DNA of 16,705 nt from a virus (taxonomy: Duplodnaviria; Heunggongvirae; Uroviricota; Caudoviricetes). The notes under the pieces were generated by a model. The model searched no databases and was not told where the DNA came from. It worked only from the letters and a program-made list of their open reading frames with translations. Below, in pieces: positions 13,788-14,413 of this stretch; position 1 is the stretch's first letter; each line of letters begins with the position of its first letter. Location: the IMG/VR virus record IMGVR_UViG_2850796239_000010; one strand, given 5' to 3'. Position numbers and translations under genes: made by a program.

Positions 13788-14413
13788 TCAAACAGCCTTG
13801 CTAAATTCTCGTGGAACACTCAGAAAATCATTGAAGCTGATAATCTGTGCCAATTCTTGACGGTACTCCTTAGCCAGCGCTTGATGGTCACTAATCAGCT
13901 CAGCTTGTGATTTATCAGCAACAATTAGAGACAGTCGATGTGGTGCTCTGACAGCTCTTTCTGTACGAACAACTCTTTGACCTTCTGGTAAATCTGCAAT
14001 CACTTTACCAATCTCTACAGGGTCATCCCCCAACCGTCACGGTCTAGTCGAGAGAAATAAGCATAAGGATTGGTTTGAAGCTCCATCAAAATAGCCATTT
14101 CGTCAATTTCGTCTTCAAGCTTGGACTGAATTTTCTCGTAAACACTTCTCATTGCTTCTTGAGAGTCTTTAATAGCTTGGAAATATCAGCGTTGTAGCTT
14201 CAACTTCAAATCAAGTTCACACCGTTCGTTCATAGAAAAATCAATTTCAACTCTTGGAATCTCGAGTGGTTCTGGTGGAATATATGGACCTTTATTTACT
14301 TCGTGTGATTCCCGCCAAGCTCTATCAAAAGATTCACGCAAACTTAATTCGTGAATATCAAGTGCACTTGGTCGGTTTTCGATAAGCATTTCATTTTCAT
14401 TACGGATAGACAT
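13788..14413 (-). pseudogene. Disrupted gene of unknown function (about 208 codons in three segments: in-frame TGA at 14186-14188 and a frameshift in a 5-G run at about 14024-14028)
   Basis: ATG at 14411-14413 with Shine-Dalgarno AGAGGA; the reading frame continues in frame past the TGA for 56 codons, then matches ORF 13788-14033 after a 1-nt shift inside GGGGG. Confidence 0.45.

Follow-up and report, generated by a model that had tools for sequence, protein, structure and literature searches.

Does a reading frame that is interrupted by an in-frame TGA and, further on, by a change of frame beside a run of five G residues represent a dead gene, or one whose expression depends on readthrough of the stop or on ribosomal slippage? 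This question is raised by positions 13788–14413, read on the minus strand, of the stretch of DNA analysed here (hereafter "the window", 16,705 nt, IMG/VR record IMGVR_UViG_2850796239_000010), for which a preliminary description made from the sequence alone had offered both answers. Having set the locus against its intact homologues, we are highly confident that the region is a recently inactivated pseudogene within the remnant of a mobile element, scrambled by insertion sequences (ISs), of a Shigella-type chromosome. The features on which the argument turns are as follows.

13788–14413, minus strand: pseudogene of 626 nt, left over from a 705-nt (234-codon) gene whose product is a predicted coiled-coil protein (from translations and the orthologue alignment).
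14422–14425, minus strand: Shine-Dalgarno motif GAGG, 8 nt 5′ of the ATG at 14413–14411 (read from the sequence).
14186–14188, minus strand: lesion 1, a nonsense TGA at codon 76 (CGA to TGA, a single C-to-T change; from orthologue codons and the protein alignment).
14026–14031, minus strand: lesion 2, a 1-nt deletion, with a T lost between the G5 run (14031–14027) and A 14026 (from the orthologue alignment).
13897–13900, minus strand: lesion 3, the point at which 78 bp (26 codons, EEIAKEKLMKARENEINLLKSRLAKL) were deleted in frame (from alignments and repeat positions).

Three-frame translation resolved the locus into three pieces. The first runs for 75 sense codons from the ATG at 14413–14411 to the TGA at 14188–14186, the second continues past the TGA in the unchanged frame for 56 sense codons and is closed by a TAG, and the third is an 81-codon ORF (13788–14033) in frame −1 (equivalently +2) relative to the first, which overlaps the end of the middle piece. 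Much of the preliminary description is borne out here, namely a good ribosome-binding site (RBS) followed by 75 codons and the TGA (by the sequence and translations) and the 56 further codons in the same frame (by the ORF list and translations). Its change of frame also stands, but the last piece measures 81 rather than 80 codons, and the G5 run lies at 14027–14031, three bases away from the 14024–14028 given previously. The AAGAGG upstream of the start is kept in all nine of the upstream regions that were aligned. When compared with E. coli orthologues, the pieces align, each over its full length, with ORFs that are single and intact, at 85–99% nucleotide identity, an agreement far beyond chance.

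Intact relatives of the gene were sought in complete genomes. A megablast search with positions 13400–16705 found chromosomal matches in 478 of the 5426 complete E. coli genomes (~9%), corresponding to the upstream half of the element described below, and gave no match against plasmids and phages. With the gene alone as query, 112 genomes were matched, and at least 80% of the query was covered in 111 of the 5426 complete E. coli. Among the 40 matches listed, the full-length ones span 703–714 bp, versus 626 bp in the window, and are annotated as coding sequences for a "hypothetical protein". In a separate set of 40 database proteins, the full-length ones have 233–237 aa. The copy in E. coli PEC122 (WP_000027819.1; locus L001, 6399–7103), for example, is a 705-bp CDS, likewise labelled "hypothetical protein", for one uninterrupted protein of 234 residues, and the copy in E. 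coli O55:H7 TB182A (L002) also encodes one uninterrupted 234-residue protein. We compared eight E. coli orthologues codon by codon with the window copy (PEC122, TB182A and six further loci), and each of the eight is a single ORF of 705–714 nt (234–237 codons). Both junctions are spanned in this way by intact homologues, which upholds the preliminary reading of a recently inactivated gene; neither three separate genes nor a lack of spanning homologues was encountered. Because pairwise dN/dS among the intact copies is 0.21–0.28 (over dS of 0.12–0.49), the parent is a real coding gene under purifying selection, and the synteny of the element around it is kept across genera. Its length had been put at about 208 codons because the 78-bp deletion was missed; the intact gene has 234 codons, and the window copy is also without those 78 bp (26 codons).

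Each of the three lesions is absent from all eight orthologues inspected, and their repair in silico yields the full 234-codon ORF. Codon 76 is a sense codon in every orthologue, reading CGA (Arg) in L001, L007, L008 and L009 and AAA (Lys) in L002, L010, L011 and L012, and the corresponding column of the protein alignment is R/K. At lesion 2 the eight homologues read GGGGGTATGAC or GGGGATATGAC and the window reads GGGGGATGAC, so that the frame shifts after codon 129 through the lost T. The 1-nt shift had been placed within the G-run itself, but the run is not one base longer or shorter in the homologues; instead, the adjoining T was lost, and the G5 length is the same in the window and in five intact alleles (the other three of the eight have GGGGA). 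Lesion 3 is flanked by the direct repeats GCTGAGCT and GCTAAGCT, which lie 78 nt apart, and its junction falls within AGCT; a deletion of 78 bp between such short direct repeats is probably the footprint of replication slippage or of a microhomology-mediated deletion. In the AlphaFold2 model discussed below, roughly half of the second long helix (predicted at residues 170–224) is lost with it. Lesions apart, no more than 6 nucleotides separate the window copy from its nearest intact counterpart (E. coli D10), or 7 substitutions if the nonsense change is counted, and these few differences imply that the inactivation is recent.

Whether such a gene was lost by decay alone or whether its loss was favoured is a separate matter. 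The three lesions fall within the 705-bp gene and none falls within the six neighbouring element ORFs (~1.84 kb), since the six other element ORFs in 13552–16705 (70, 102, 95, 71, ~92 and 183 aa) are all full length and intact. This clustering is unpredicted by purely neutral decay, and the neighbours may still be under selection or loss of the gene may have been favoured. If inactivation was indeed selected, the orphaned coiled-coil protein would have been harmful once the tape-measure gene had gone, or under pressure from phages or the host. An estimate from ORF lengths with uniform hits gives (705/2545)^3, or ~0.02, for the observed distribution; however, this estimate is post hoc, and lesions that follow the first knock-out are neutral and expected. 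The same gene has also been lost in S. sonnei, and this loss is independent of that in the window. In S. sonnei 53G (L018 6001–6966; HE616528.1) the gene is still in yecE and is cut at about codon 200 by an IS3-family insertion, giving a product of 203 aa that ends in ...AKLIS followed by EVA, and many "partial" proteins from draft genomes end at this same IS boundary. The downstream tape-measure operon is absent in S. sonnei, and the IS event there took downstream genes too, which argues that the gene was not specifically targeted. We consider selected inactivation improbable.

The broken gene is an ordinary case of gene decay. It resembles the pseudogenes in decaying prophages and islands of Shigella in its nonsense change, its small indel, its microhomology deletion and the truncation of its neighbours by ISs, in lying on a Shigella-type chromosome rich in IS600-type elements and in having intact orthologues that are kept in commensal and pathogenic E. 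coli. It is unlike them only in that the gene is an ORFan of an uncharacterised small mobile element and not a housekeeping or classical prophage gene.

A different concern is that the stop and the frameshift could be sequencing or assembly errors in a gene that is truly intact, since indels beside homopolymers are a common error in some long-read assemblies. Against this, an exact-protein look-up of the 75-aa product retrieved the identical 626 nt, with the three lesions, from four independent assemblies: one complete NCBI genome collinear with the window (GCA_002950355.1; CP026875.1, 5.16 Mb) and three Logan assemblies, each from its own SRA run (SRR1811688, in a contig common to 6 samples, i.e., 5 further ones; SRR4787083; and DRR015921). 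A nonsense substitution and a 78-bp deletion are moreover untypical as errors. Because the same 626 nt recur in four independent assemblies, assembly error appears very unlikely as a source of the lesions, and we give an intact gene disguised by such errors very little credence.

The second answer in the preliminary description, namely that expression depends on readthrough or slippage, would combine UGA readthrough or selenocysteine insertion at codon 76 with a −1 slip on the G5 run. The RBS and the start codon are undamaged, and steric constraints would allow tRNA-Gly to slip by −1 on G GGG G, giving WG-D-DPVE, which is near the intact WGYDPVE. The homologues, however, give no sign that the gene ever worked in this way: at codon 76 they have Arg or Lys in 8/8, and not Cys, Sec or a stop; all eight are single-frame, and three of them have GGGGA instead of G5. 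Neither a two-frame architecture nor a slippery site is conserved in the eight homologues, and the sequence holds no canonical in-frame X XXY YYZ heptamer, nor is any such heptamer conserved. No SECIS hairpin was found directly 3′ of the UGA in the MFE fold; a weak, un-SECIS-like hairpin (−7.8 kcal/mol) starts 17 nt past the UGA, and those 17 nt are unpaired. The fold 3′ of the G-run is modest as well, at −11.5 kcal/mol over 70 nt (raw MFE). In addition, two rare events would have to coincide for the product to be made, 26 residues would be missing from it even then, and its operon partner, the tape-measure protein, is gone. Recoding is thus scarcely credible for this gene. Under the pseudogene reading, translation from the intact RBS should end at codon 76 and yield a 75-residue fragment, and the locus can be explained without UGA recoding or programmed frameshifting.

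Comparison with two known kinds of frame-changing genes leads in the same direction. Phage tail assembly chaperones of the lambda G/GT type use a programmed −1 frameshift and are encoded just upstream of the tape-measure gene; the window gene is alike in that one ORF separates it from a tape-measure gene and, in its broken copy, in having two frames that meet at a homopolymer run. Unlike in those systems, the intact homologues are single-frame and have no conserved slippery heptamer, 23 nt with a stop separate the gene from the 70-codon ORF that follows (which has an RBS of its own), and the change of frame is a mutation private to the window lineage. Phase-variable contingency genes, which are switched by slippage at homopolymer tracts, are similar in that the frameshift of the window adjoins a G5 run, but here the tract has five residues in both broken and intact alleles and the missing base is the adjoining T. 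A tract of five is also short for efficient switching, and the two other fixed lesions make the state irreversible.

That the region holds three separate small genes (75, 45–56 and 81 codons) with starts of their own can be given practically no weight, for although gene callers do predict ORFs of 75, 45 and 81 aa on these contigs, the pieces are collinear with one 234-aa protein and form separate genes in no homologue, the 81-aa ORF has only a TTG start that lies inside the old reading frame, and the 81-aa product is a one-member cluster. In annotation, gene callers should merge the three small ORFs into one pseudogene.

The leader of the gene carries a feature of its own.

14443–14532, minus strand: long terminator-like hairpin, conserved, in the gene's 5′ leader, with an A-run/U-run at its base (from the MFE and conservation in eight loci).

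The segment 14414–14560 (minus strand) folds with an MFE of −47.5 kcal/mol (z −5.97), and the hairpin of ~90 nt within it (CAGCTTTTAAAAAGCACACTTGGCA...TGTCAGGTGTGCTTTTTAAAAACTG) is conserved across eight E. coli loci in the form of two sequence types that differ by pair-preserving changes. Both sides have changed in 10 of the 29 pairs, and four central pairs swap U-G/U-A and G-C/G-U between the types. Judged from these two haplotypes, which represent few independent events, the hairpin looks like an RNA-level structure or a bidirectional terminator or attenuator.

How the gene came to stand without its operon can be read from the sequence downstream of it, in which four features are of importance.

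13552–13764, minus strand: intact ORF of 70 codons; all copies of the element have it next after the gene (its product is 100% identical to that of E. coli PEC122).
13411–13455, minus strand: stub of the tape-measure gene, first 15 codons only (tblastn of the 689-aa L001 tape-measure protein matched residues 1–15 only).
13204–13410, minus strand: fragment of another IS with an HTH_Tnp_1 transposase domain, which cuts the tape-measure gene (PF01527, E 2.3e-8, in the ORF 13196–13375).
11940–13203, minus strand: IS600-type IS of the IS3 family, copy 3 of three (100% repeat identity; Pfam HTH_Tnp_1 and rve, NCBIfam transpos_IS3).

In L003, a gene is predicted at the fragment that corresponds to 13204–13410. 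The window as a whole is Shigella-type DNA, containing an ipaH gene of the IpaH3 type, the sRNA CssrB and IS600-type elements in three copies. The last of these are IS3-family elements that we take to be IS600; they are 1264 bp long and 100% identical (1353–2616, 7800–9063 and 11940–13203), with two in direct and one in inverted orientation, and three identical copies, as a substrate for deletions and inversions, account for the mixture of unrelated phage segments found here. On either side of copy 3 lie pieces of other transposase genes, at 11708–11939 and 13204–13410, of which the first is an HTH_21/IS3-family piece that is fused in frame to a Baseplate_J gene, resulting in an artefactual 423-aa ORF (10806–12077). 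In E. coli, the Baseplate_J and tail-fibre genes that lie past copy 3 are part of an unrelated myovirus-type prophage near ompN/uspF. The tape-measure stub, the IS fragments and these unrelated prophage genes beyond them show that IS activity deleted the rest of the operon and joined codon 15 of the tape-measure gene to the baseplate gene of the unrelated prophage.

We had also considered the tail-fibre and baseplate genes past copy 3 as part of a larger version of the same element, and rejected this in favour of the different E. coli prophage near ompN/uspF. Several further genes were noted toward the left side of the window. A full-length Rfam match to CssrB (Chromosome-encoded Shigella sRNA B; 151.6 bits against a gathering threshold of 76) lies at 2630–2812 on the minus strand, between IS600-type copy 1 and the ipaH gene. 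The latter (2941–4656, plus strand) is intact and encodes a 571-aa IpaH E3 ubiquitin ligase with a full-length match to PDB 3CVR (1261 bits); it sits among tail-fibre genes, tail-fibre-assembly genes and IS copies, an arrangement typical of ipaH islands. Adjoining IS600-type copy 1, at the window's left edge, is a gene (297–935, minus strand) for a 212-aa calcineurin-like (Metallophos) phosphoesterase of the Ser/Thr phosphatase type found in lambdoid prophages.

The remnant in the window (13411–16705) derives from an element with the gene order small Ser recombinase, several ORFans (with or without HNH and Dam), 107-aa ORF, 234-aa ORF, 70-aa ORF, tape-measure, Dit-like and large Ser recombinase. 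The two recombinases that bound it have ~190 aa (small) and ~506 aa (large). Further copies were located at L001 1438–12681, L007 4143–15788 and L014 4562–15596, and the contig L016 consists of the element as a whole: its ends, which fall within the tape-measure gene, share 27 nt, and it closes to a circle of 11,253 bp. In E. coli the element occupies yecE; in another enterobacterium it lies between yciI and yciA. In the slot of the 107-aa PEC122 ORF, the window has a 102-aa ORF (14953–15261, minus strand) of 28% identity, with flanking genes at 86–100%, and this slot appears cassette-like and highly variable. Lambdoid Stx phages are the only ones known to integrate in yecE (PMC8112680), and no description of this gene or element was found in the literature on yecE prophages and Felix O1-like phage satellites.

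The tape-measure and Dit-like proteins of the element belong to PF20155 and PF21821, respectively. The former is ~30% identical, over its full length, to Felixounavirus tape-measure proteins, and the latter is 65% identical (E 2e-121) to the product of the ORF after the tape-measure gene in phage ESCO49. These two are the only genes of the element with homologues in the ESCO49 genome, where the tape-measure gene is preceded by two ORFs that carry the annotation tape measure chaperone.

The intact 234-aa protein itself gave no match above threshold in sequence searches of Pfam, PHROGs, NCBIfam, PADLOC and PDB, with sub-threshold matches of coiled-coil type only, to DUF7384 (21 bits versus a cut-off of 27) and CEP63. 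No homologue was detected by tblastn in 50,697 phage records, and a profile search of 1.84 billion cluster representatives returned 12 matches, all of them fragments or the same syntenic gene, so that no remote family emerged from these representatives. The AlphaFold2 model (18-sequence alignment) is of low confidence (pLDDT 57.6, pTM 0.40) and predicts two helices of ~55 residues, 60–114 and 170–224, around a conserved, unmodelled middle that holds an invariant DRDGWGYD motif. A distant version of the protein (P0077, 240 aa, 23.5% identical) lies in the same gene order at the enterobacterial locus between yciI and yciA. Between these two versions of the element, the 234/240-aa protein (23.5% identity) and the tape-measure protein (41.8%) are the products of the most diverged structural or operon genes, versus 65–95% for their neighbours, and the high divergence of both fits co-evolving partners, as far as their sequences can tell.

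The position of the gene is that of a chaperone gene, since the order 234-aa, 70-aa, tape-measure, Dit-like is found in every intact copy and parallels the order chaperone, chaperone, tape-measure, Dit-like in Felixounavirus ESCO49. The 234-aa and 70-aa ORFs are thus like the chaperones ESCO49_00013 and ESCO49_00012 (132 and 79 aa) in their position before a homologous tape-measure gene, but unlike them in having no detectable sequence or profile similarity to them (hhalign probability of 0.1% versus ESCO49_00013) and in length (234 versus 132 aa). We tentatively suggest, with considerable doubt, that the protein was ancestrally a tape-measure-specific assembly partner or chaperone analogue.

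Returning to the pseudogene reading, the course of events may be pictured as follows. The ancestor encoded, in 234 codons, a largely helical and probably coiled-coil protein and stood first in an operon of 234-aa, 70-aa, tape-measure and Dit-like baseplate genes, and this operon was carried by a serine-recombinase mobile element of ~11.3 kb sitting in yecE in E. coli. In the Shigella-type chromosome, insertion sequences removed the operon from codon 16 of the tape-measure gene onward. The three disabling mutations probably came after this loss of the operon, or may have begun to accumulate earlier.

As for the element, its closed-circle contig, its gene order across genera and the 65% identity of its Dit-like protein are compatible with an undescribed excisable island, its only virion genes being those for a Felix O1-type tape-measure protein and the adjacent Dit-like baseplate protein, that acts as a satellite or tail-assembly saboteur of virulent Felix O1-like phages, with the 234-aa protein as its tape-measure-specific chaperone; this remains a speculative proposal that we hold to be rather unlikely as it stands. 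If the element does interfere with or exploit Felix O1-like phages, it would be relevant to phage therapy and to the typing phages of Salmonella and E. coli. The broken gene itself matters little, being one more case of gene decay in a Shigella-type genome, and the context of the element may be worth more.
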